Part shown: positions 24,951 through 62,999 of the stretch, one piece after another
How the letters are laid out: each line of letters begins with the position of its first letter
How positions within the stretch are numbered: position 1 is the stretch's first letter
Assembly: GCA_023953695.1 (NCBI GenBank)
Contig: JAMLJG010000015.1
Coordinates: 2,756 to 66,755 of the forward strand
Length of the DNA stretch: 64,000 bases
Reading direction: 5' to 3'
Source: Kiritimatiellia bacterium
Lineage (GTDB): Bacteria; Verrucomicrobiota; Kiritimatiellia; CAIVKH01
The notes under the pieces: model-generated
Database searches by the model: none
Told to the model about the DNA's origin: nothing
Seen by the model: only the letters and a program-made list of their open reading frames with translations
Program-made: the position numbers and the translations under genes

Positions 24951-25075
24951 AACCCGGCAACGTGCTACTCTCCCGTAGCCTACACTACAGTACCATCGCC
25001 GCTGAGGGTCTTAACGGCCGTGTTCGGAATGGGAACGGGTGTTTCCCCCTCGCTATGGTCACCGGGAAATCAGGA
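24951..25075 (-). rRNA. rrf: 5S ribosomal RNA
   Basis: The reverse complement reads a canonical 5S sequence (…CCCGTTCCCATTCCGAACACGG…GGGAGAGTAGCACGTTGCCGGG). Confidence 0.85.
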
Positions 25076-25142
25076 CTCTGCCAAGGGCAGAGAAAAAACA
25101 TTGCATAGGATGGTTCACATACATTCACAGAAAAAGAGAAAA

Positions 25143-28105
<2,963 letters not shown>

Positions 28106-28292
28106 AAAATTATTGGTCGCCATCCGCACCCTTGCGGGTACGAACGGTTACGATCTTCTTCGGTGAAGATTGTATGTTTCCCATCCTATGCAATTGTCAA
28201 AGATCAGCCCTCAGTACAGCGCTCATTTGCGCCTTCCATCGGGAAATCGTTTCGAAGTGATTGGCTCGCCTTTCGCTCGCGCTTCACGCCAT

Positions 28293-28368
28293 GGTGGGCG
28301 TGCCTGGATTCGAACCAGGGACCTCGTCCTTATCAGGGACGCGCTCTAACCAACTGAGCTACACGCCC
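28293..28368 (-). tRNA. tRNA-Ile (anticodon GAT)
   Basis: The reverse complement GGGCGTGTAGCTCAGTTGGTTAGAGCGCGTCCCTGATAAGGACGAGGTCCCTGGTTCGAATCCAGGCACGCCCACCA folds as a cloverleaf with anticodon loop CTGATAA. Confidence 0.9.
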
Positions 28369-28380
28369 GCCGCTAATTGG

Positions 28381-28453
28381 TGGAGGCAACCGGGTTCGAA
28401 CCGGTGACCTTCTGCTTGCAAAGCAGATGCTCTACCAGCTGAGCTATACCCCC
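28381..28453 (-). tRNA. tRNA-Ala (anticodon TGC)
   Basis: The reverse complement GGGGGTATAGCTCAGCTGGTAGAGCATCTGCTTTGCAAGCAGAAGGTCACCGGTTCGAACCCGGTTGCCTCCACCA has anticodon loop TTTGCAA and the G3:U70 Ala identity pair. Confidence 0.9.
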
Positions 28454-28679
28454 AGGACCGTGGTCTCGGGGACGCTGCCCTGGCTCCCGGCTCATCAATC
28501 ACTTCGCTGGAATACTTGCTATGTTAGCTTCGATGTAGAAATGGTGAGGCTTGTGATCGTTATACGCTGGTCTCACGTTGCCGCGAGACCGACATCCTGC
28601 CTATGGCAGGAGAATATCCTATCTTCTTGAATTCACACTTTACTTGCCCGAGGGCAAGCGCCTTGTGATTCCGAAGATG

Positions 28680-30248
<1,569 letters not shown>

Positions 30249-43621: not shown

Positions 43622-44053
43622 ATGCGTTTGATCGGAAAACTCCTCCATTGGCTCCCCGCCATCGCCTGGGCCAGCACGCTCTACAGCCTCAGCAGCCGCT
43701 CCGCCGTTCCCGACATCCCCTCGTGGTTTTCGGCACACGACAAAGTCACACACGCCATCGCCTTCGGCCTCCTCGCCTCTCTCATCCAGTTCGCCTTGCT
43801 TCGAGCTCATCGCCTGCGCTTCCTCCCCGCCGCCTGCATCGCATGGCTGCTGACCACCGCCTACGGCGGCCTGGACGAACTGCACCAGCGCTTCACACCC
43901 GGCCGCGTTTCCGACATCGCCGACTGGATCGCCGACATGACCGGCGCAGCCCTCGCCCTCGCGATCCTCGCCCTGCTCGCCTATTCGTATCGCCGAATCA
44001 CCCCGCGCACCACCCCGCCAATCACCAGCGACTGCCGCGGCCGAATGAATTGA
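43622..44053 (+). CDS. VanZ-family membrane protein
   Basis: Three to four TM helices with the conserved DKVTHAIAFGLLA and GGLDELHQRFTPGR motifs of VanZ-like proteins. The 3' end overlaps lexA convergently by 73 bp. Confidence 0.6.
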   Translation: MRLIGKLLHWLPAIAWASTLYSLSSRSAVPDIPSWFSAHDKVTHAIAFGLLASLIQFALLRAHRLRFLPAACIAWLLTTAYGGLDELHQRFTPGRVSDIADWIADMTGAALALAILALLAYSYRRITPRTTPPITSDCRGRMN

Positions 44054-44583
44054 TACTTCCTATTCGCCGGATCCAAGCGAACCCCAACGCTGTCCTTCAC
44101 ATAATACTTCAGCGTCCACTCTCCATCCACCTGCGCAACCACAATCTGCCCATTGCGCGGCTGCGAGCCCTTCTCCACCAGCACGATATCGCCCGGATGA
44201 ATCCCCGCATCCACCATCGAGTCCCCATTCACCGTCAGCAGAAACGTCGCCTCCGGACGCCGAATCATATATTCATCCAGACTCAACACATCCGCCGCCG
44301 CCTCCTCCGCCGGCGATGGAAATCCCGCCTGAACAAAACCCAGCATCCGAACCGTCCCCGACAACTGCGCCGTCGGAGACAAATGCCCCGCCGCATCCTT
44401 GGCGAGAAACCCATGCTCAACCAACTTCTTCACCAACCCCGACACCGCATTCGTCGAGCGATAGCCAAAAACATCCAACATCTCCCGATAACTCGGCAGT
44501 CGCTTCTCGCGCCGATAGAAAAGGCGCAATTCCTGAATCTTCTCCTGAATATCAAGCGTGCGCGGCATGGCCAATCTCCCCAT
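43981..44583 (-). CDS. lexA: LexA repressor (S24 peptidase)
   Basis: N-terminal wHTH, an Ala-Gly cleavage region (VQAGFPSPA), catalytic Ser (GDSM) and Lys (KGSQPRNGQIVVAQV..LK) motifs of the S24 family. Confidence 0.85.
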   Translation of the reverse strand: MGRLAMPRTLDIQEKIQELRLFYRREKRLPSYREMLDVFGYRSTNAVSGLVKKLVEHGFLAKDAAGHLSPTAQLSGTVRMLGFVQAGFPSPAEEAAADVLSLDEYMIRRPEATFLLTVNGDSMVDAGIHPGDIVLVEKGSQPRNGQIVVAQVDGEWTLKYYVKDSVGVRLDPANRKYQFIRPRQSLVIGGVVRGVIRRYE

Positions 44584-44680
44584 TCATCCTGTCCAAACCA
44601 TAACTGAACACCCGTTCACCCGCAACACTTTTCCGCAACCCCTCCAAACAACGCGAGAGTCGAACCCGCCCCCAAAAAAC

Positions 44681-44759
44681 TTCCAAGCCTTGGAAGCCCA
44701 TCTCGCACAAACTTCCAACCCTTGGAAGTCAGCGCCCCCCAGACTTCCAATCCTTGGAA
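44681..44759. repeat. array of three 15-bp palindromes TTCCAA-N3-TTGGAA at exact 32-bp spacing in the lexA / lipoprotein divergent intergenic region
   Basis: Copies at 44681-44695 (gcc spacer), 44713-44727 (ccc) and 44745-44759 (tcc). Each is preceded by ACTTCC context. The same motif family occurs upstream of bioA. Confidence 0.7.
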
Positions 44760-53262: not shown

Positions 53263-54279
53263 CTATTCCTCTTCGTGCACCACTTCGGACAGGTGGAACC
53301 CCGCCTCGGCCATCATCGCCATGTCGTCCTCATAGCCCTGCCCACCGGTCGTCAAGTAGCCCTCGCTGAACATCGAGTTGGCCGGATAGAGCGCCAGCGG
53401 CTGCATGTGCTTGAGCACCACTTCGCGACCGCCGGCAATTCGAATGTCGCGAGTCGGATTCACGAACCGGAACATGCACAAACACTTCAACCCCTCCGCC
53501 GGAGACAGGCGTTCCACGTCCGCAAGCGGCGTGCCGGGGCGCGGGTCAAAAAGATTCACCGGAATGGACTCCACCTCCATCTCGCGCAGCATGAACGCCA
53601 AATCCACACGGTCGTCCAGCGACTCGCCCATCCCCATAATCCCGCCGCAACACGCTTCCATGCCCGCCGCCTTGGCGATCTTCACCGTGCGCACGCGATC
53701 CTCAAAGCTGTGCGTCTGCACCACTTTCGAGAAATAGTTCTTCGAGGTCTCGAGGTTGTGATTGAACCGATCCACCCCCGCCTCGACCAGTCGCGCCGCG
53801 TCCGCTTCGGTCAAGATTCCGAGCGAAGCGCAAATATCAATGTCCATCTCCGCCTTGATGCGCCGCGTCGCCTCGCAAATAATCTCCAGCTCCGCATTCG
53901 ATGGCCCCCGCGTGGCCGTCACCATGCAATACTTCGCCGCGCCCATTTCGTGCGCCTTGCGCGCGCCCTCCAGCAACTCCTCCGGCGTCTGCATCCGATA
54001 GCGCTCAACGCCGCTCTGCGCGCCCATCGCTTGGCTGCAGAACCGACAGTTCTCGCGACAAAGCCCGCTCTTGGCATTGCGCAACACGTGCAGCCGAACA
54101 TCTCGCCCATAAAAACGCTTGCGGACGCGAAACGCCGCATGCAGCAGCGCCAACAACTCATCGTCATCCGCGCGCAAAACCGACATCGCATCCTCGCGCG
54201 TCAGAGCATTCCCTGCCAGCGCCTCATCTGCCAAATGATCCCAACGAGCCATAGCTCCTCCTGAAAAACGCTTCTTCAT
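53263..54279 (-). CDS. bioB: biotin synthase (radical SAM)
   Basis: CxxxCxxC radical-SAM motif (CRENCRFCSQ) plus the BATS domain with auxiliary-cluster cysteines. The start may be the internal MARWD. Confidence 0.9.
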   Translation of the reverse strand: MKKRFSGGAMARWDHLADEALAGNALTREDAMSVLRADDDELLALLHAAFRVRKRFYGRDVRLHVLRNAKSGLCRENCRFCSQAMGAQSGVERYRMQTPEELLEGARKAHEMGAAKYCMVTATRGPSNAELEIICEATRRIKAEMDIDICASLGILTEADAARLVEAGVDRFNHNLETSKNYFSKVVQTHSFEDRVRTVKIAKAAGMEACCGGIMGMGESLDDRVDLAFMLREMEVESIPVNLFDPRPGTPLADVERLSPAEGLKCLCMFRFVNPTRDIRIAGGREVVLKHMQPLALYPANSMFSEGYLTTGGQGYEDDMAMMAEAGFHLSEVVHEEE

Positions 54280-54380
54280 ACACCAACTCGCGAGCTTGGA
54301 ACAGGAAAACCATACACTACCCCAGATGTGTTTGCATTTTGCAGATTCTCCGCCACGATGTTCAGCCTACTGCAACCGCA

Positions 54381-55540
54381 TGAACGAGTGGATCGAACAA
54401 CAGCTCAGCGAAGTGGCCGCGCGCGGTGAATCGCGCCAGCTCACCGCATGGCCCACCCTCGGCCCCTACCTCCAGCGCGCCGACCAACGCATCCTCAACC
54501 TCGCGGGCAACGACTATCTCGGCCTCACCGCGCACCCCGCCGTGCGCGAAGCCGCCGCCCGCGCCGCGCGCGACATCGGAACCGGCGCCACCGCCTCGCG
54601 CCTCCTCGCCGGAACCGCCACTCTCCACGAACAACTCGAAGCAGAACTCGCCGACTGGAAAGGCCATCCCAGCGCCCTCCTCTTCAGCAGCGGCTACCTC
54701 GCCGCGCTCGGCATCCTTCCCCTCCTCGCCGGACGCGATGACCTGATCGTCGCCGACCGCCTTTGCCATGCGTCCCTCCTCGACGCCGCGCGACTCAGCG
54801 GCGCAACCCTCGTTCGCTTCCATCACAACGACATCGCCGACGCCCACAAGCGCCTCGCAAAACGCCCGCACCACCCCCGCTGCCTCATCGTCACCGAATC
54901 GCTCTTCAGTATGGACGGCGACACCGCGCCACTCCCCGAACTCCTCGCGCTCGCCCAATCGCACAATGCCACACTCCTCGTGGATGAAGCCCACGCCCTC
55001 GGCGTCGCCGGCCCGCGCGGCGCGGGCCTCACCGCCGACCAACCGGAAGCGGAAGAAAACCTCGTCACCCTCGGCACCCTCGGCAAGAGCCTGGCCGCCG
55101 CGGGCGGCTTCATCACCGGCCCCGCCAAACTCCGCACGCTGATGATCAACCGCGCGCGCACCTTCATTTTCGACACCGCCCTGCCACCGCCCACCCTCGC
55201 TGCCGCGCGCGCCGCACTAAACGAGATACGCGCGCACCCCGAATGGCCCCGCGCCCTCGCCGAAAAGGCCGCCCGCCTCCGCGCTCGGCTCAGCAGCGCC
55301 GCGCTCGACACCACCCCCTCCCAATCGCACATCATCCCCGTGCGCATCGGAGACAACCACCGCGCCACAGCCATCGCCTCACGCCTCAGCGAACAGAACA
55401 CCCTCGTCGCAGCCATTCGCCCACCCACCGTTCCGCCCGGCACCGCGCGTCTCCGCCTCTCTCTCAGCCTCGCCCACAGCGACACCGACCTCGACGCCGC
55501 CGCTGCCGCCATCCAACGCGCCGCGCAGAATATCCCATGA
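54381..55540 (+). CDS. bioF: 8-amino-7-oxononanoate synthase
   Basis: PLP-dependent AONS/serine-palmitoyltransferase-family fold, with the catalytic lysine context SLGKSLAAAGGFI. The start is taken at MNEWIEQ. The stop overlaps the bioH start (ATGA). Confidence 0.85.
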
Positions 55541-56160
55541 AAGCGCGACTCTTCCCCGGCTGGGCCTTCCCCGAAACCGCACTCCAACCCATCGCCGAAG
55601 CCCTCCACTGCGACATCCGCACAGACACCGGCGGCGACCTCTGGATCGCCTGGTCACTCGGCGGACTCCACGCGCTCACTCAATCGCGCGCCACCACTCC
55701 CCGCGCACTCATCCTCATCTCCTCCACCGCGCGCTTCTGCGCAGACAGCGACCACTGGCCCGGCCTACCCACCGCCAACCTCCGCGCACTCCAGCGCCAA
55801 CTCGCCCGCGCCCCCGAAGACGCCCTTCGCGGCTTCCACAAACTCTGCACCGCAACCGCATCCGCCACCACCCTCGAAACGCGCCTGCGCGACAGCCTCA
55901 CCCTCCCCCTCGCCGATGGCCTCCGCGACCTCGCCGAACTCGACCTCCGCGACCGCCTTGAAACCATCCGCCAACCCACCCTCCTCCTCCACGGCTCCAA
56001 AGACCGCGTAATCCCCATCGCCGCCGCCCACGCCCTCGCCCAGCGCCTCCCACACGCCCAACTGCGCGAACACCCCGAAGCCGAACACGACCTCCCCATC
56101 GCCCACGCCGGCTGGGTCATCGAACAAATACGCGACTTCCTCGGCGCAGATTGGGGATAA
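55537..56160 (+). CDS. bioH: alpha/beta-hydrolase, BioH-like pimeloyl-ACP methyl ester esterase
   Basis: Nucleophile elbow AWSLGG with a C-terminal Asp/His region (HGSKDRVIP...EHDLP). Located between bioF and bioC. Confidence 0.65.
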   Translation: MKARLFPGWAFPETALQPIAEALHCDIRTDTGGDLWIAWSLGGLHALTQSRATTPRALILISSTARFCADSDHWPGLPTANLRALQRQLARAPEDALRGFHKLCTATASATTLETRLRDSLTLPLADGLRDLAELDLRDRLETIRQPTLLLHGSKDRVIPIAAAHALAQRLPHAQLREHPEAEHDLPIAHAGWVIEQIRDFLGADWG

Positions 56161-56348: not shown

Positions 56349-56987
56349 ATGGATGAATCAAAGAATACTGCAATCATCATGCGAGACGCAGAACATGGCG
56401 ACACCGAAGCCAAATGTATTCTCGGCATGATGTATTTAGATGGACATGGCGTCCCTCAAAGCGACGCGAAGGCGCTCGAGTGGTTCGCCCAGGCCGCAGA
56501 AGAAGGCAATGCCGACGCGCAATTCTATCTCGGCGTCATGTACTACGAAGGCCGGTGCGTACCCCAAAACTACGCAAAAGCCGTCGAATGGTATTCACGA
56601 GCCATTGAACAAAACCACGCCGAATCGCAATTCAACATCGGCTGGCTATACGCCAAAGGGCATGGCCTTCCGCAAGACGACGTAAAAGCTGCCGAATGGA
56701 TCGCAAAGGCCGCGGAACAAGGAGACGCAGACGCGCAATCCGACCTCGGCGTCATGTACTACGAAGGCCGCGGAGTGCCCCAAGACGATACAAAAGCATT
56801 TGAATGGCTCTCAAAGGCCGCCGCGCAGGGCATTGCCACATCGCAAGCCAACCTCGGTGAAATGTATGAAAAAGGCCGAGGTGTGCCACAAGACTACGCA
56901 AAAGCTGCCGAATACTACGCCATGGCCGCCGAACAGGGCCATGACGATGCGCAAAGAAATCTCGACGCGCTGTCCGAGAGAAATTGA
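56349..56987 (+). CDS. Sel1-repeat (SLR/TPR-like) protein
   Basis: Five tandem 36-aa Sel1 repeats (A.AxxWYxKAAEQGxAxAQxNLGxMYxxGxGVPQD). Local GC is visibly lower than the flanking bio genes. Confidence 0.75.
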   Translation: MDESKNTAIIMRDAEHGDTEAKCILGMMYLDGHGVPQSDAKALEWFAQAAEEGNADAQFYLGVMYYEGRCVPQNYAKAVEWYSRAIEQNHAESQFNIGWLYAKGHGLPQDDVKAAEWIAKAAEQGDADAQSDLGVMYYEGRGVPQDDTKAFEWLSKAAAQGIATSQANLGEMYEKGRGVPQDYAKAAEYYAMAAEQGHDDAQRNLDALSERN

Positions 56988-57094: not shown

Positions 57095-57886
57095 ATGAGC
57101 GTGCATCAACTCAATCAACGGGCTCAGTTTTCCGCGGCGGCGGCGGGATATGATCGCTTTGCGCATACGCAGCGGGCAGTGGCGAATCAGCTCTTCGAGG
57201 GCTTGGCTCACGCAGGTGAAATGCGCCGGATTCTCGATGTGGGCTGCGGAACGGGGGCGCTCACGCGGCACCTCGCGATTGCCTGGCCCGAGGCGGAGGT
57301 GGAGGGCATTGACCACGCGCAGGGGATGATCGAGGAGGCGCGGCGCATCAGCGGAAATGCGGAGCGCCCTCGCTATCTGTTGGCGGATGCGCAGTCGTTT
57401 CGCGCGCCGCTTCCCTATGATTTGATCGCGAGCAGCAGCACGCTGCACTGGATTCAGCCGCTGGAGTTCACGCTGCGGCATTTGGCGTCTCTGTTGGCGC
57501 CGCACGGCACATTTGCCTTCGCGATCATGCTCGAACGGACGCTCTGCGAGCTGCATAGCGCACGGGCACAAATCGCTCCGAACAATACGCCGGCGTCGAA
57601 GATGCCCTCGCATAACGTGGTGATGCAGGGCTTGGCCGGCGCGGGCTTGCGCGTGGTGGCGAGTGAGGTGCAGGAGTTTCTTGTGCATGCCGAGTCGGCT
57701 TCCTCGCTGCTTGGCGATTTGCGCGCGCTGGGGGTCACCGGGGGGCCGCTCTCGCTCGGAGCCCGGCCGCTGACCCGCGGTGAGGTGCATCAACTGCTGG
57801 CGCTCTACGAGCGCAGCTTCCGCGATGAGCGCGGAGTTCGCGCGACGTATCACGTGGGCTATTATTGGGGCCAGCGCAATGATTGA
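57095..57886 (+). CDS. bioC: malonyl-ACP O-methyltransferase
   Basis: Class I methyltransferase with motif I ILDVGCGTGALTRHL, positioned immediately upstream of and overlapping bioD. Confidence 0.8.
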   Translation: MSVHQLNQRAQFSAAAAGYDRFAHTQRAVANQLFEGLAHAGEMRRILDVGCGTGALTRHLAIAWPEAEVEGIDHAQGMIEEARRISGNAERPRYLLADAQSFRAPLPYDLIASSSTLHWIQPLEFTLRHLASLLAPHGTFAFAIMLERTLCELHSARAQIAPNNTPASKMPSHNVVMQGLAGAGLRVVASEVQEFLVHAESASSLLGDLRALGVTGGPLSLGARPLTRGEVHQLLALYERSFRDERGVRATYHVGYYWGQRND

Positions 57887-58571
57887 CGCAGGCCTCATCG
57901 TGGTCGGCACGGATACGGGGATCGGCAAAACGCGGGTTGCGGCGGCGCTGCTGGTCGCGCTTCGCGCACGCAGGTTCGATGTCGTGCCGATGAAGCCGAT
58001 TCAGACGGGCGCGGAGCGCGGGCGCGCGCCCGATTTGGATTTCTGTTTGCAGGCGGCAAATCTTCCGTGCGACGCAGCGTTGTATGACCGACTCGCCCCA
58101 TACCGCTTTGCGCTCCCCGCGTCTCCGCATCTCGCAGCGCGCGAGGCGGGCGCAACGATTGAGGCGCAACGCATTTGGGATGCGTGGACAGCGCTGCGCG
58201 ATGCGGGGCATGGCGTGATCGTCGAGGCGGCGGGCGGGGTGCTAGTTCCGCTGAGCGATTCGCTCCTGCAGATGGATCTGCTTCTCGGGTTCGATCTCCC
58301 CTTCCTCCTCGTCGCGCGGCCGGACCTGGGCACGTTGAATCACACGTTGTTGACACTGGAGGCGCTGAGGAATCGCAATGCGCAGATCGGCGGAATCGTG
58401 CTCAATGCCACGCGCGCGGACAGCGGTTTGATTGAAGAGGATAACGCCCGTACGCTGGCGGCGCGAAACCCCGATGTGCCCCTCCACCGCTTCCCGTTTA
58501 TGCCGGACCCCACCCGCGCGGCCCTGGAAAAGGCGGGCGCGGATCTTCTGGCGACGCTGCACTTCCAATGA
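57879..58571 (+). CDS. bioD: dethiobiotin synthetase
   Basis: P-loop GTDTGIGKT with the BioD-type fold. The start MIDAGL overlaps the bioC stop. Confidence 0.9.
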   Translation: MIDAGLIVVGTDTGIGKTRVAAALLVALRARRFDVVPMKPIQTGAERGRAPDLDFCLQAANLPCDAALYDRLAPYRFALPASPHLAAREAGATIEAQRIWDAWTALRDAGHGVIVEAAGGVLVPLSDSLLQMDLLLGFDLPFLLVARPDLGTLNHTLLTLEALRNRNAQIGGIVLNATRADSGLIEEDNARTLAARNPDVPLHRFPFMPDPTRAALEKAGADLLATLHFQ

Positions 58572-58672
58572 TTGGAAACCGGTCGCGCGCGGACTTCCAA
58601 CGATTGGAAAATTTGCGTGTGAAAGTTCCAAGGGTTGGAAGTATGGTGCGAGGAAATTTCCAAGCGTTGGAA
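58563..58672. repeat. array of four TTCCAA-N3-TTGGAA palindromes at 31-32 bp periodicity upstream of the bioA 5' fragment
   Basis: Copies at 58563-58577 (tga), 58595-58609 (cga), 58626-58640 (ggg) and 58658-58672 (gcg). The last two lie inside the duplicated block shared with the functional bioA upstream region. Confidence 0.7.
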
Positions 58673-58689
58673 ATATGGGGTGATTTTCG

Positions 58690-58869
58690 ATGAGTGTTTC
58701 TGAGGTTCAGCGTTGGGATCGCGCGCATGTGTGGCGCCCGTACACCAAGGCTTCCACGCTTGAGGCGGGGCCGGCGCCGGTCATTGTGCGGGGGCCACCC
58801 GGGGTCTGCCACCCGGGGTCAACCCTTGAAAGGCCGTTGAAAAACTCGCTGTTGCCGATGTCTGTTTAG
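58690..58869 (+). pseudogene. orphan 5' fragment of bioA (first 35 codons) truncated by an insertion
   Basis: MSVSEVQRWDRAHVWRPYTKASTLEAGPAPVIVRG is near-identical to the N-terminus of the full bioA at 61686. The reading frame then continues into unrelated sequence and stops. Confidence 0.7.
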
Positions 58870-59411
58870 ACGAAACGGGGGACGAGCCCCCATCGCCGCA
58901 TCTTTTCCCAGCATGGAGGGATGCGGCCCGTGAATGCGGCGATGCCGACGCCCGCCCGTTCAATAGCGGTCACCGCGGTTCGGACCATTTTACCGGGCGC
59001 CTTTCCGGCTGCCCGGATGATCCGCTGCCGGTGCGTGGGGCACTGCGCCGGCCTCCACCATGCACCGAACAGCCGGACCAAACCCGTACGCCTTATCGCC
59101 ACCCACCGTGGTCGGTTCGATGCCCAGCGCAAAACGACTGCGCTCGGTCATGAGGCCCGCCGCCTGTCCTTCTGGCACAAGCGACGCTCCGAGGTGATGC
59201 CGTGCAGATATCCCAGCGCCATCATGCGGATCAACACTTCAGGATCGATCGAAGGGCGGCCCGTGTGGCTGTAGAGCGAGCGGGTCTGTTCTTCCACAGC
59301 AGAGAAATCGATGTAGCGGTCGATCTTGCGCAAGAGGTGGTCGGCGGGAACAAGATCCTCAACTCGAACCATCGAGAACATCGGCTCCGCGCGTCGTTGC
59401 TTACCTCGCAT
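58866..59411 (-). pseudogene. IS5/IS1182-family (InsH-type) transposase remnant with frameshift/internal deletion
   Basis: N-terminal InsH-like domain (MFSMVRVEDLVPADHLLRKIDRYIDFS...HTGRPSIDPEVLIRMMALGYLHGITSERRLCQ). A second, frameshifted piece contains the DDE-region motif GDKAYG. Most of the catalytic core is missing. Confidence 0.6.
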
Positions 59412-59591
59412 GGGAACGTCTCCTTATGTCGGCTCGAATGCCGACCTCACTCCAACGACTCAAGGCCCAGACGTGTTCATCGTTTATCCGAGTTTTTCAA
59501 TAGCCATTATTCCACTGACCCCTATTCCACAGACGTTCGCCCCACGGCATGACTGCTTTACGGCTCTCTAGCGTCATGATATGATAGCGCC

Positions 59592-59780
59592 ATGATTCAG
59601 AAGGTGATACAGCGACATGCACTGAAGGATGAAGGCAAGCCATCTCTAGAGTTGAGCTATTGGCTTAAGGTATCTCCGGAAAAGCGTGTTGAGGCAGTTG
59701 AACTCCTCCGCAGGCAGCATTATGGAAGCTCAACCCGACTACAGAGAACTGCTCGAATTATTCAACGCCCAAGGGGTTGA
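59592..59780 (+). CDS. small hypothetical protein (possible partner of downstream nucleotidyltransferase)
   Basis: 62-aa ORF overlapping the start of the nucleotidyltransferase-fold gene. No family recognised, and it may be spurious. Confidence 0.25.
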   Translation: MIQKVIQRHALKDEGKPSLELSYWLKVSPEKRVEAVELLRRQHYGSSTRLQRTARIIQRPRG

Positions 59781-60186
59781 ATTTCTCATTGTTGGCGCCT
59801 ATGCGCTGGCCTTCTATGGAGCGCCACGTACGACAGGCGACATTAACCTTCTTGTTCATTCAACCCCCGATAATGCGGCGCGCGTTGTCGCCGCTCTTGA
59901 CGCCTTTGGTTTCGGGTCCCTCGGGCTCACAACGGACGACTTTCAAACTCCCGATCAAGTTATTCAACTCGGCGTCCCCCCTGTGCGGATAGATATTCTG
60001 ACGTCTCTCTCGGGTGTCACATGGAATGAGGCAAACGAGGGCAAGGAGCCGGGCAACTACGGGGATGTACCGGTATTCTTCATCGGCAAGACCGAATACA
60101 TAAAGAACAAGAAGGCCACAGGCCGCAAGAAAGATGAAGCCGACGTTGAAGCCTTGGGGCAATCAGGGGCGACCCTTGAGAATTGA
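59722..60186 (+). CDS. nucleotidyltransferase-fold protein (MNT/AbiEii-like minimal NTase)
   Basis: YRELLELFNAQGVEFLIVGAYALAFYG...TGDINLLV matches the minimal nucleotidyltransferase pattern (hG[GS]...D.D). About 155 aa. The start is taken at MEAQPDY. GC content is lower than the host genome. Confidence 0.5.
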   Translation: MEAQPDYRELLELFNAQGVEFLIVGAYALAFYGAPRTTGDINLLVHSTPDNAARVVAALDAFGFGSLGLTTDDFQTPDQVIQLGVPPVRIDILTSLSGVTWNEANEGKEPGNYGDVPVFFIGKTEYIKNKKATGRKKDEADVEALGQSGATLEN

Positions 60187-60367
60187 CAAAGGCGGGGGCA
60201 GCGGGGTCAGCAATCGGCTGTATCGCCGGCGCAAAGGACTGTTCGACGGTCAAGATTATGCGATACCAAGAACTGATCCGCGCCCCCCGCCTACACCGCA
60301 TGGCTCACTCGCGACGGGCTCGCTGTCGGGTGTGGCGTGACCTTAGGCGGACGAAAGAGGAGGCACT

Positions 60368-61129
60368 ATGAGTTTAAGAAGGAAAATTGAGGCGCTTGCG
60401 GGGCACCTGACCGGTAGACGCAAGAATCGCGCACCTCCGCGTGGCATGGATTTCGCCTTGGACATCGCGTATGCCTTGCCGTTGTTTCGCGCGAGCATTG
60501 TTTTTGATGTAGGTGCCAACGTTGGTCAATCCGCGAAACTGTTTTTGGCCAAGTTCCCAGATTCGCACATCTACTGTTTCGAGCCGGTGACCGATACGTA
60601 TCACCTGCTTCAGCACAACTTACATGATACCGAGCGCGTTGATTGTCATCAGTTGGCCTTCGGCTCTACAACGAGAACCGGGGAGATGATTCTCCAAGGC
60701 TCCTCCGACATGTTCTTTTTGCTGGGCCAATCGAGCGAGTTGCCCAACAAAGAGGTGCGAAGCGAGTCCGTAAACATAGACACACTGGATGCCTTTTGCC
60801 GCGCGAACAAGATTGATCGCATCAGCTTCCTCAAGATAGACACCGAGGGAGGAGATCTAGACGTCTTGAGAGGCGCAGAAATGATGCTAGGCGAACAGAG
60901 AATAGATATTGTTCAAGTGGAAGCTGGGATGAGTCCGACTAACAGCAGGCATGTGCCATTTCAATCCCTAAAGAATTTTCTCGAAGACCATGGGTACTAT
61001 CTGTTTGGCATTTACGAACAAGTGAAGGAATGGCCTACTGGAGAACCTCACTTGCGACGGACAAACCCCGTATTTATCTCACAACAGGTGATTGACAAAA
61101 ATCGAAAGCAAAAGAGACCCAGGACATAG
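60368..61129 (+). CDS. FkbM-family methyltransferase
   Basis: Methyltransf_21 signature VFDVGANVGQSAKLF...CFEP...FLKIDTEGGDLDVL. Located in the low-GC cargo of the island. Confidence 0.75.
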   Translation: MSLRRKIEALAGHLTGRRKNRAPPRGMDFALDIAYALPLFRASIVFDVGANVGQSAKLFLAKFPDSHIYCFEPVTDTYHLLQHNLHDTERVDCHQLAFGSTTRTGEMILQGSSDMFFLLGQSSELPNKEVRSESVNIDTLDAFCRANKIDRISFLKIDTEGGDLDVLRGAEMMLGEQRIDIVQVEAGMSPTNSRHVPFQSLKNFLEDHGYYLFGIYEQVKEWPTGEPHLRRTNPVFISQQVIDKNRKQKRPRT

Positions 61130-61235
61130 CAACGCGCTGTAACGGACGGCAATTTCGCTGTGTTCCCTTGCTGCCGGTGAACTTGGGCAGTATGTGTCTA
61201 GATCACTTGGACAACGGCCCCATTAGAAAAGGAGT

Positions 61236-61556
61236 TTGCACATGAGTCATAAAATCTCCGGGGGGTTAGTACATGAGCTGCCCGTTGATTTAGCCAGGGC
61301 ACTGATTGAAAAAGACACCATCGGTGCATGGGAGGCCTTATCACCCATTGGCCGCAATGAATTTATCTGCTGGGTGGAAGATGCCAAACAAGAGAAGACC
61401 AGAGAAAAACGGATTCTTCGAACGGTAGAAGAGCTACTGGAAGGCAAGAAACGACCCTGCTGCTGGGTCGGGTGCATTCATCGTACAGATAAGAAGCCAA
61501 GCAAATGGCAACAAGATGTGTTGATAGACAAAAAGAAAATTGCAAGGAAGAGTTGA
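61236..61556 (+). CDS. YdeI/OmpD-associated (OmdA) family protein
   Basis: Conserved OmdA core GRNEFICWVEDAKQEKTREKRI with the typical roughly 100 aa size. A hairpin TTTGGC-tgac-GCCAAA follows the stop. Confidence 0.6.
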   Translation: MHMSHKISGGLVHELPVDLARALIEKDTIGAWEALSPIGRNEFICWVEDAKQEKTREKRILRTVEELLEGKKRPCCWVGCIHRTDKKPSKWQQDVLIDKKKIARKS

Positions 61557-61622
61557 GAACGACACATGGCAAGTCGTTCACGGTGCGACGTCTTTGGCTG
61601 ACGCCAAACGCGCGCCTTTATC

Positions 61623-61668
61623 TCCAATCATTGGAAGTATGGTGCGAGGAAACTTCCAAGCGTTGGAA
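61623..61668. repeat. two TTCCAA-N3-TTGGAA-type palindromes upstream of the functional bioA (one degenerate CTCCAA)
   Basis: Copies at 61623-61637 (CTCCAAtcaTTGGAA) and 61654-61668 (TTCCAAgcgTTGGAA), 31 bp apart. The right member is homologous to the palindrome at 58658. Confidence 0.6.
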
Positions 61669-61685
61669 ATGTGGGGTGATTTTCG

Positions 61686-62999
61686 ATGAGTGATTCAGAG
61701 GTTCAGCGTTGGGATCGCGCGCATGTGTGGCACCCGTACACCAAGGCTTCCACGCTTGAGGCAGGGCCGGCGCCGGTCATTGTGCGGGGCGATGGGATTT
61801 ATTTGGTGGATGCGGAGGGGCGTCGTTTTGTGGACGCGATTTCGTCGTGGTGGTGTGCGGCATTGGGGCATGGGCATCCGCGGATTGTCGCGGCGATCCA
61901 GGGTCAGGCGGGGGTGTTGCAGCACAGTATCCTGGCGAATCTGACGCATCCGCAGGCGGCGGAGTTGGCGGCGCGTCTTGCGGGGATGATGCCGACGCGG
62001 GAGCGCCGCGTTCTGTTTGCGAGCGATGGGGCGAGTGCGGTGGAGCAGGCGCTGAAGATTGCGGTGCAGTATTGGAGCAATGTGGGGCGTGGCGCGAAGC
62101 GGAAATTTGCGTGTTTGCATACGGCGTATCACGGGGACACGTTGGGCGCGATGGCGGTGGGCTATCTGGAGGAGTGGCATCGGCCATTTCAGAGCTTGCT
62201 GGCAGAGGTGGTGGCCCTTCCCTTCCCCGTGGGCGCGGGCGAGTTCGGCGTTTGGGAGCGCGCGCTGGAGGCGCATCGCACGGAGTTGGCGGCGGTGATT
62301 GTGGAGCCGCTTTGTCTGGGCGCGGCGGGGATGTTGATGTATGCGCCGGAGCTGTTGCGGGCGTTGGGCGATTGGTGCGCGAGGAATGAGGTGTTGTTGA
62401 TTGATGATGAGGTGGCGATGGGGTTTGGGCGCACGGGTCGGATGTTTGCGTTTGAGCATGCGGGGGTGGATCCGGATTTGGTGTGCGTGGGCAAGGCGTT
62501 GAGCGGCGGGGCGCTGCCGATGAGCGCGACGATTGCGAAGCAGTTTCTCTACGATTCGTTTTCGGACGCGGAGCGGGATCGGACGCTGCAGCACGGGCAC
62601 ACGTTTTGTGGCAATCCGATTGGCGCGGCAGCGGCGAATGAGGCGCTGCAGATTTATGCGGAGATGGATGCGCCTGCGCGCGCGCGATCGCTCGGGGCGC
62701 GGATGGCGAAGCGCTTGGGCGCGCTGCGTGGAAAACGCGGGGTTCGCGATGTGCGCGGTCTCGGATTGATTGGGGTTGTGGAGTTGGAACCGGAGGCGAA
62801 TTGCGGGGCGATTTCGCGCCCGCATCGCATTCGACTGCGTCTTCAGGAGCGAGGTGTTCTCCTTCGCCCGCTTGGGAACGTGCTCTATTTGATGCCGCCT
62901 CTGATTATCTCGGAGGAGGAGCTCGACGCGCTGGTGGAACTCTTTGTCGGGGCAATCGAGAGCGAGCTGGCTATGGCAGGAGCCGCGGAAGGAAAATAA
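61686..62999 (+). CDS. bioA: adenosylmethionine-8-amino-7-oxononanoate aminotransferase
   Basis: Class III PLP aminotransferase with the BioA-specific N-terminus (WHPYT...) and the catalytic lysine context (DEVAMGFGRTG, CVGKALSGG). 437 aa. Confidence 0.9.
   Translation: MSDSEVQRWDRAHVWHPYTKASTLEAGPAPVIVRGDGIYLVDAEGRRFVDAISSWWCAALGHGHPRIVAAIQGQAGVLQHSILANLTHPQAAELAARLAGMMPTRERRVLFASDGASAVEQALKIAVQYWSNVGRGAKRKFACLHTAYHGDTLGAMAVGYLEEWHRPFQSLLAEVVALPFPVGAGEFGVWERALEAHRTELAAVIVEPLCLGAAGMLMYAPELLRALGDWCARNEVLLIDDEVAMGFGRTGRMFAFEHAGVDPDLVCVGKALSGGALPMSATIAKQFLYDSFSDAERDRTLQHGHTFCGNPIGAAAANEALQIYAEMDAPARARSLGARMAKRLGALRGKRGVRDVRGLGLIGVVELEPEANCGAISRPHRIRLRLQERGVLLRPLGNVLYLMPPLIISEEELDALVELFVGAIESELAMAGAAEGK

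Follow-up and report, generated by a model that had tools for sequence, protein, structure and literature searches.

Phased TTCCAA-N3-TTGGAA palindromes beside bioA and lexA of a Kiritimatiellia bacterium belong to an extragenic array family

Palindromic sites and arrays in the window

The window analysed here is a stretch of 64,000 nucleotides from a Kiritimatiellia bacterium (GenBank assembly GCA_023953695.1, contig JAMLJG010000015.1, positions 2,756 to 66,755 of the forward strand), and our subject is a short palindrome, TTCCAA-N3-TTGGAA, which is repeated at regular intervals beside the biotin gene bioA. Exact copies of TTCCAANNNTTGGAA start at 58563, 58595, 58626, 58658 and 61654, while a further site, starting at 61622, carries one arm mismatch (CTCCAA). 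The successive spacings on the bioA side are 32, 31 and 32 bp, followed by 32 bp in the right-hand pair. A separate array of three exact sites, starting at 44681, 44713 and 44745 and spaced by 32 + 32 bp, lies on the lexA side. Altogether, the window contains eight exact matches to the motif, whereas 100 dinucleotide-preserving shuffles gave 0.00. The dyad of this genome is lengthened to ACTTCCAA-N3-TTGGAAGT. Coordinates of all features are collected in Table 1.

The bioA-side sites had been described in an earlier reading of the window made from its letters alone (hereafter, the sequence-only reading), which did not include the lexA-side array. Much of that description holds: the palindromes 5' of bioA are real, their periodicity of 31–32 bp is confirmed by measurement, and the flanking context that they were said to share corresponds to the lengthened dyad. 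The right-hand pair, placed at 61623 and 61654, requires a correction, as its second site is exact, but the first one actually starts one base earlier. It is also this site that carries CTCCAA, so the arms are perfect in five of the six sites described, not in all of them.

The bioA-side sites close a cluster of bio genes (Table 1), and the first palindrome overlaps the end of bioD, whose TGA stop codon forms the palindrome centre (58569–58571, reading ...H-F-Q-stop). Such an arrangement is found elsewhere, too: in a crude scan of open reading frames (ORFs) across the loci of the survey described below, the central TGA of a palindrome ended a long ORF in 15 cases, being the commonest single stop-to-array offset.

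Downstream, bioA is split after approximately codon 34 by an insert of lower GC content (about 58796–61621; 49–52% GC in places). The segments 58635–58793 and 61631–61789 are duplicates, approximately 96% identical, and their alignment begins with a palindrome's right arm; the copies differ in the left arm and the centre of this boundary palindrome (TTCCAAGGG versus CTCCAATCA). Thus, the left boundary of the duplication does fall inside a palindrome, as the sequence-only reading had proposed, in what is a single case. At the left junction (58794–58820), there is a perfect direct repeat, GCCACCCGGGGTCT, present twice. Since the two 5' copies of bioA differ at about 4% of positions, they do not represent a fresh target duplication. 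The same right junction is carried by a 96%-identical relative, L128, which lowers the likelihood that this junction arose as a simple artefact of assembly. One more contig, JAGFJQ010000059.1 (GCA_024102575.1, L120), encodes an identical BioA and shows differences of a few bases just 5' of the first palindrome (L120 2759–2878 compared with window 58444–58563), so that its assembly is very closely related to that of the window without being the same.

Table 1. Coordinates of genes, arrays and duplicated segments in the window
Feature	Coordinates	Strand	Remarks
rRNA operon	24952–30247	minus	complete (16S, two tRNAs, 23S, 5S); no TTCCAA sites nearby
lexA	43981–44583	minus	Peptidase_S24; Pfam LexA_DNA_bind domain undetected
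three-site array	44681–44759	none	divergent gap between lexA (minus) and ORF 44904
bioB	53263–54279	minus	
bioF	54380–55540		
BioH-like hydrolase gene	55537–56160		
Sel1-repeat gene	56349–56987		embedded in the bio cluster; follows the BioH-like hydrolase gene and precedes bioC
bioC	57095–57886		
bioD	57879–58571	+	dethiobiotin synthase-like (AAA_26/CbiA); 3' end enters the first palindrome
four-site exact array	58563–58577, 58595–58609, 58626–58640, 58658–58672	none	between bioD and the truncated bioA copy
truncated 5' bioA copy	58691–58793	+	about 34 codons; part of the left duplicate (58635–58793)
insertion sequence (IS) transposase remnant, DUF772	59148–59411	minus	in the insert
ORF without Pfam match	59686–60186		in the insert
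FkbM-type methyltransferase gene	60368–61129		in the insert
OmdA-family gene	61236–61556		in the insert
two-site array	61622–61668	none	61622–61636 with CTCCAA mismatch; 61654–61668 exact; ends 17 nt 5' of the full-length bioA ATG
right duplicate	61631–61789	+	about 96% identical to the left copy; left edge inside palindrome 61622–61636
full-length bioA	61686–62999	+	Aminotran_3

A family of extragenic arrays with helical-turn spacing

A pattern scan for two sites separated by 14–20 bp, conducted on one genome per species (185,579 species genomes), yielded at least 119 stretches from 46 assemblies among the matches listed. All of these are metagenome-assembled genomes (MAGs) of the Planctomycetes–Verrucomicrobia–Chlamydiae (PVC) group. 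Many bear the label Kiritimatiellae, Kiritimatiellia, Kiritimatiellales or Pontiella, and the others carry generic Verrucomicrobiota or Lentisphaerae labels; the LexA encoded in the window is itself 99% identical to an NCBI protein labelled Kiritimatiellae bacterium. Some genomes have up to four arrays per 8 kb among the matches listed. Viral contigs gave only 7 stretches in 2.9 million. Full-text literature searches did not return a description of the motif, and the arrays matched none of the Rfam covariance models. Apparently, the family has not been described before.

The consensus of 396 distinct exact sites is tTTTCCAA-N-S-N-TTGGAAAa, where S stands for C or G. C and G together make up about 99% of the central bases, in roughly equal shares, and positions 7 and 9 are complementary in 53% of cases compared with 37% expected. 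The spacer between neighbouring sites carries less than 0.1 bit of information per position, showing just A/T-rich edges and a GC-rich middle. Its self-complementarity was not above that of controls past the first two positions, and a longer hairpin running through the spacer was dismissed on these grounds.

Arrays contain 2–6 sites. The distances between sites are 21/22 bp, 30–33 bp (overwhelmingly 31/32 bp) or sums of these, out to 136 bp, and 229 of the 239 spacings within the seeded range of 29–35 bp equal 31 or 32 bp. An octamer limit, by which four sites would be wrapped in an Lrp-like manner, was unsupported, given the presence of arrays with five and six sites. We would also like to comment on two six-site arrays from rumen MAGs, which are near mirror images of each other: 22-31-31-30-22 bp in L026 (7580–7730) and 22-30-31-31-22 bp in L071 (5852–6002). 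Such mirror-like patterns hint at a preferred higher-order layout.

Beyond the common core, individual genomes have their own dialects. The 12-base core is shared by the 46 assemblies, in which orthologous proteins are about 55% identical, and only the centre and the flanks vary. The genome CAIVKH uses a T-S-A centre and a spacing of 32 bp; in CAISWQ, the centre is mostly G-S-C and the spacing is 31 bp, while the window has a relaxed centre and AC..GT flanks. Weak common consensus is also seen among the spacers of CAIVKH, with a core identity of 0.50 within the genome compared with 0.36 between genomes and 0.40 after shuffling. The unit being symmetric, polarity can be read only from the centre base: among neighbouring sites, 120 pairs have GG or CC centres, 44 have GC and 25 have CG, the GC order being favoured in CAIVKH. 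When the window is compared with L128, the arms are intact and the spacer is identical at 12 of 17 positions, against 96% identity in the flanks. In this small sample, such a pattern agrees with selection acting solely on the arms.

The arrays are strongly enriched between genes. Outside the called ORFs lie 134 of the 166 arrays, whereas non-coding sequence accounts for 13% of bases (p ~2e-86). Of the 10 checked arrays that had been assigned to the inside of ORFs, 9 look like artefacts of ORF calling, as no Pfam domain covered the array; some of them are clearly located 5' of the real start. One array, in the linker of a kinase/FGE-sulfatase protein (L054), may be genuinely intragenic. According to the rough gene calls, 73 arrays lie between co-directional genes, 24 between divergent genes and 20 between convergent ones, and the array is 5' of 108 flanking genes and 3' of 106.

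No gene family recurs beside the arrays in an all-against-all blastp comparison of 796 rough ORFs, and no DNA-binding gene recurs there either. Neighbours of the large arrays include housekeeping genes (purM-like, decarboxylase-like, DegT-like aminotransferase, phosphoribosyltransferase and YggS-like), and GH97, MurJ, isocitrate dehydrogenase and hydrogenase genes are found next to arrays as well. Five convergent gaps consist almost wholly of an array set between two stop codons, with Pfam domains in 9 of the 10 flanking ORFs. The pairs are Wzy_C and MurJ, FeFe-hydrogenase and a Rex-like gene, UxaE and an FAD oxidoreductase, isocitrate dehydrogenase and a PATR protein, and LemA and an ORF without a match. 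In three homologous gene pairs from different genomes (products about 55% identical), the array stands on the same side in both members. This indicates that the position of an array can persist, while the results for lexA and bioA given below indicate that it often does not.

Overall, the arrays form a family that is extragenic, neutral to gene orientation, helically quantised and conserved in sequence rather than in pairing. Its centre is an unbiased G:C pair, its members fall into dialects, and its arrays turn over at orthologous loci.

A putative dimeric binding protein and the competing readings

Several observations bear on whether the sites are read as DNA or as RNA. Among in-phase variant sites, there are 37 with a single uncompensated mismatch, and double mismatches are compensated in 3 cases and uncompensated in 2. 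In co-directional genes, the sense-strand centre is G in 80 cases and C in 83. This lack of strand bias, together with the exclusion of A and T, corresponds to one base-pair state at the dyad of a DNA duplex, but to two different states of an RNA loop. On both strands, a T-run stands before each potential hairpin and an A-run after it, the opposite of the order in an intrinsic terminator. Taken together, four results (the quantised spacing, the conservation of arm sequence, the unbiased G:C centre and the reversed T- and A-runs) point to recognition of double-stranded DNA by a protein that would have two-fold symmetry.

Dyad sites at integral helical turns with free spacer sequence are what a same-face array displays. 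The sequence-only reading had suggested that a dimer binds cooperatively along one face of the helix, and this suggestion gains strength from the helical-turn spacings (21/22 bp, 31/32 bp and their sums) and from the unbiased central G:C. The reading that we favour, with moderate confidence, is that a putative dimeric DNA-binding protein binds cooperatively, on the same face, to a lineage-specific extragenic repeat that spreads and is homogenised within genomes. The unit is a short perfect dyad, (T)TTCCAA-N-S-N-TTGGAA(A), with genome-specific flanks, set two or three helical turns from its neighbour with free spacer sequence. On each site, the DNA duplex would be bound by a dimer of two-fold symmetry, and neighbouring dimers might touch on one face of the helix, so that the array becomes cooperatively coated. 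The coated array might then serve as an architectural or boundary element and possibly as a bidirectional roadblock where nothing but the array separates convergent genes. The arrays themselves would be spread and homogenised within genomes by a REP-like process, REP denoting the repetitive extragenic palindromic sequences of Proteobacteria. Turnover at orthologous loci, differing densities, dialects and the one junction inside a site are features typically met in a repeat that spreads and becomes homogenised within genomes.

It is also tempting to suppose something more specific, namely a kind of sequence-specific "gene-boundary chromatin", in which a conserved dimer polymerises on phased sites between transcription units and acts as an insulator or as a bidirectional roadblock terminator, being the sole element of this kind in many convergent gaps, while co-evolution of protein and motif gives rise to the dialects. 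We consider this extension unlikely, albeit attractive.

We are aware that several points weigh against the favoured reading. The blastp comparison of the 796 rough ORFs brought up no candidate for the binding protein, no family being enriched beside arrays. Arrays that come and go rapidly at orthologous loci, differ widely in copy number between genomes and are homogeneous within them are what a selfish repeat would be expected to show, and a host function is not required to account for them. Furthermore, the range of taxa and the copy numbers are minimum values (at least 119 stretches), and the array sample was seeded with pairs 29–35 bp apart, which biases the spacing statistics towards 31–32 bp. 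The gene contexts come from a rough, home-made gene caller based on codon usage, by which some genes of the window were miscalled (bioD, bioH, bioC), making the counts approximate. Finally, the arrays would fold into hairpins if transcribed, so that a role at the RNA level, improbable as we judge it, also has to be weighed.

The alternative that survives best, though we still think it unlikely, is a selfish element of the REP/REPIN type (REPIN, a hairpin-forming REP doublet). It would consist of single-stranded DNA hairpins copied by a domesticated HUH transposase (RAYT-like; RAYT, REP-associated tyrosine transposase) or by another transposase, and it would have no dedicated function for the host. 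Such an origin would suit the extragenic, clustered, high-copy occurrence of the arrays, their genome-specific dialects and widely varying copy number, the weak spacer consensus found in one genome and the rearrangement junction inside one palindrome. It would also agree with the lack of arrays at orthologous loci of relatives whose LexA is 65–83% identical. Moreover, Y1-like genes do occur near the arrays: an approximate E. coli RayT query found four by tblastn, three of them confirmed by Pfam, so that Y1_Tnp genes are present in 3–4 of the 119 listed loci.

However, a RAYT gene is normally flanked by its cognate REPs (PMC2817692), and in the two loci examined for repeats (L072 and L114, out of four such genes sampled), the TTCCAA arrays are not the flanks of the Y1_Tnp or RAYT-like gene. 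The Pfam-confirmed, IS200-like Y1_Tnp gene of L072 (6244–7466) has tandem 38-bp GC-rich repeats on both sides, and the RAYT-like ORF of L114 (4333–4732; found by tblastn only, with no Pfam match) is followed on its 3' side by GTAG-type repeats with units of 27 bp and 42 bp. An association of the arrays with RAYT was rejected for these loci, as the gene-side repeats are different from the TTCCAA arrays. Being separate from the arrays, they indicate that classical REP-like repeats coexist with the TTCCAA family. In addition, the TTCCAA sites carry no GTAG or CGTC tag, and their arms are AT-rich, perfect and 6–8 bp long, with a core kept across 46 assemblies. The spacers are unrelated, whereas a copied unit should bring its spacer along, and quantised helical spacing has no rationale for a single-stranded substrate. 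An IS200-like Y1_Tnp domain was observed in L113 (2696–5599), where it lies in frame within a PriA helicase ORF (aa 238–327), between the 3'-DNA-binding domain and the helicase core.

The RNA-level reading is less probable still. It supposes that the arrays are transcribed in 3' untranslated regions or between cistrons, where their hairpins stabilise or terminate transcripts in the manner of enterobacterial REPs. The positions of the arrays lend it some appeal: they often start 0–30 nt from a stop codon, they lie between co-directional genes of the same pathway (bioD and bioA), and they fill convergent gaps in which there is no room for another terminator. A palindrome, moreover, yields the same RNA from either strand. 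The predicted RNA fold of the arrays is strong, with nested hairpins at z = -6.3 and -5.6, although palindromic sequences fold in this way trivially. The arrays failed the test for intrinsic terminators, the stem being AT-rich and the T-run misplaced (before the hairpin, with the A-run after it, on either strand), and the terminator scanner reported none at the arrays; in L125, a canonical terminator follows downstream of the array. The arm sequence is invariant, with mismatches rarely compensated, and the equal frequency of G and C at the sense-strand centre, A and U being excluded, fits a DNA base pair. Likewise, fixed spacers of 16–17 nt and multiples of ~10.5 bp make no sense for RNA, and divergent genes have arrays 5' of them equally often.

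By far less credible, in our view, is a specific operator array through which a biotin regulator (BirA, BioQ or BioR-like) or LexA would control bioA. The location of the sites invites such a reading, since the gap between bioD and the truncated copy of bioA contains four of them, another two finish 17 nt ahead of the full-length bioA start codon, and another array lies 5' of lexA. Nevertheless, among 80 BioA loci from metagenomes, sites 5' of bioA were found only in L128, the 98% identical strain. The other 79 loci, which include relatives that are 36–57% identical, have none there, while L141 has scattered sites downstream of bioA. The promoter scanner gave no sigma-70-like promoter at the arrays. 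A sigma-70 promoter of the form TTGGAA-N17-TTCCAA was rejected as well: the spacer length fits, but the second hexamer is unlike a -10 element, the scanner reported none, and arrays also occupy convergent gaps.

The case of lexA leads to a similar result. A perfect GAAC-N4-GTTC box lies in the window just 5' of the lexA start codon (44606–44617), and this box, followed by AGT or ACT, is common to the window and to all seven lexA orthologues (65–83% identity, Kiritimatiellae-type). It is the likely LexA operator and probably the SOS box of the lineage. No TTCCAA site occurs within the 3.4–8.6 kb around lexA in any of the seven orthologues. Since the GAAC-N4-GTTC box is shared and the TTCCAA sites are absent there, LexA is ruled out as the protein that binds them.

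The sequence-only reading had considered a cooperative regulator of the bioA promoter, had looked to promoter elements overlapping the sites and to the bioA promoters of relatives for support, and had asked how the motif is distributed genome-wide. The phasing of 31–32 bp and the intergenic enrichment do recur, but the motif is not specific to bioA: besides the lexA-side locus, at least 119 stretches across 46 assemblies carry arrays, which adjoin unrelated genes. In view of this distribution, the lack of overlapping promoters and the absence from orthologous bioA promoters, the regulator proposal does not stand. The bioA-side palindromes are ordinary members of the family and no biotin or SOS operator; as far as bioA is concerned, the array would be no more than a generic intercistronic element separating bioD from bioA.

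That the sites form a local minisatellite or cluster by chance can practically be set aside: Tandem Repeats Finder does report a 32-bp period at 58595–58678, but with 76% matches and similarity confined to the palindrome, it leaves the other arrays, including the one at 44681, undetected, zero matches are expected by chance, and the same core recurs in 46 assemblies. The sequence-only reading had offered a minisatellite-like or REP-like repeat family as its second option. A generic repeat family is indeed closer to the data, but the unrelated spacers mean that it is no minisatellite, and several tests that define REPs failed.

Significance and comparison with known systems

For bioA itself, the outcome is that a tempting but wrong regulatory annotation is removed, while the biology of biotin remains unchanged. 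Of more general interest is the family. An exact core, its conservation across a deep lineage, its confinement to intergenic DNA and its helical-turn layout would together imply a conserved, specific DNA-binding partner and a route of spreading, and the exactness of the motif may make this partner directly findable. If the arrays mark or insulate the boundaries of transcription units, they would represent rare bacterial boundary elements that are defined by sequence. If, instead, they are selfish, they would form a new class of miniature repeat outside the REP–RAYT model.

Tandem dyad operator sites three helical turns apart are known from NrdR boxes, from the enhancer sites of NtrC and from the arrays of Lrp and other feast/famine regulatory proteins (Lrp/FFRP). 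There, as in our family, dyads of 13–17 bp are spaced 31–32 bp centre to centre on the same face of the helix, implying cooperative contacts between dimers. Those systems, however, are specific to a gene or a regulon, are placed at promoters and have degenerate sites, whereas the TTCCAA arrays have no regulon, occupy convergent gaps and consist of near-perfect sites. Their arrays also grow to six sites, and several of them can occur within 8 kb.

Short exact motifs that run through a whole lineage and have sub-lineage dialects are represented by the cyanobacterial HIP1, by the DNA uptake sequences (DUS) of Neisseria and by the uptake signal sequences (USS) of Pasteurellaceae. Unlike these motifs, which occur singly or as inverted pairs and frequently inside genes, the TTCCAA family is organised in phased arrays with a fixed spacer length. 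CRISPR arrays differ as well: in the family, the repeat is 15–19 bp and the spacer 13–17 bp, with 2–6 units per array and many arrays per genome, and the spacers follow a fixed composition pattern (A/T edges, GC centre). We saw no cas context, and Rfam gave no match.

The nearest known kind is the REP, together with the bacterial interspersed mosaic element (BIME) and the REPIN. These elements are extragenic, clustered, regularly spaced, bound by proteins and prone to rearrangement (PMC2817692, PMC3733652, PMC3116915). The TTCCAA family resembles them in being made of short extragenic palindromes that are high-copy, clustered (at least 119 stretches, with 134 of 166 arrays outside called ORFs) and regularly spaced, that often stand past stop codons or between cistrons, that are homogenised and that serve as sites of rearrangement. 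The features that define REPs mostly fail here, however. REPs are GC-rich, imperfect palindromes, 20–40 bp long, one end of which bears an unpaired GTAG or CGTC tag (PMC3733652), while the core of our family is an AT-rich dyad of the 6-3-6 form that is perfect, flanked symmetrically by T and A, and untagged. REPs are species-specific (PMC3733652, PMC2817692), while this core is common to 46 assemblies and is specific neither to a species nor to a genus. REPs mostly occupy positions downstream of genes, in the gaps of unidirectional and convergent ORFs (PMC3733652), while the arrays show no 3' preference by the rough gene calls, being 5' of flanking genes as often as 3' of them. Neighbouring units of a BIME alternate in orientation; in the arrays, where the unit is symmetric, the centre bases of neighbouring sites (given above) are the one indicator of orientation. 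Last, the spacers of the arrays are unconserved in sequence and quantised in helical turns. Overall, the TTCCAA arrays resemble the REP and BIME elements in their ecology, but differ from them in the missing tag, in the length of the palindrome and in the repeats that flank the sampled RAYT-like genes.

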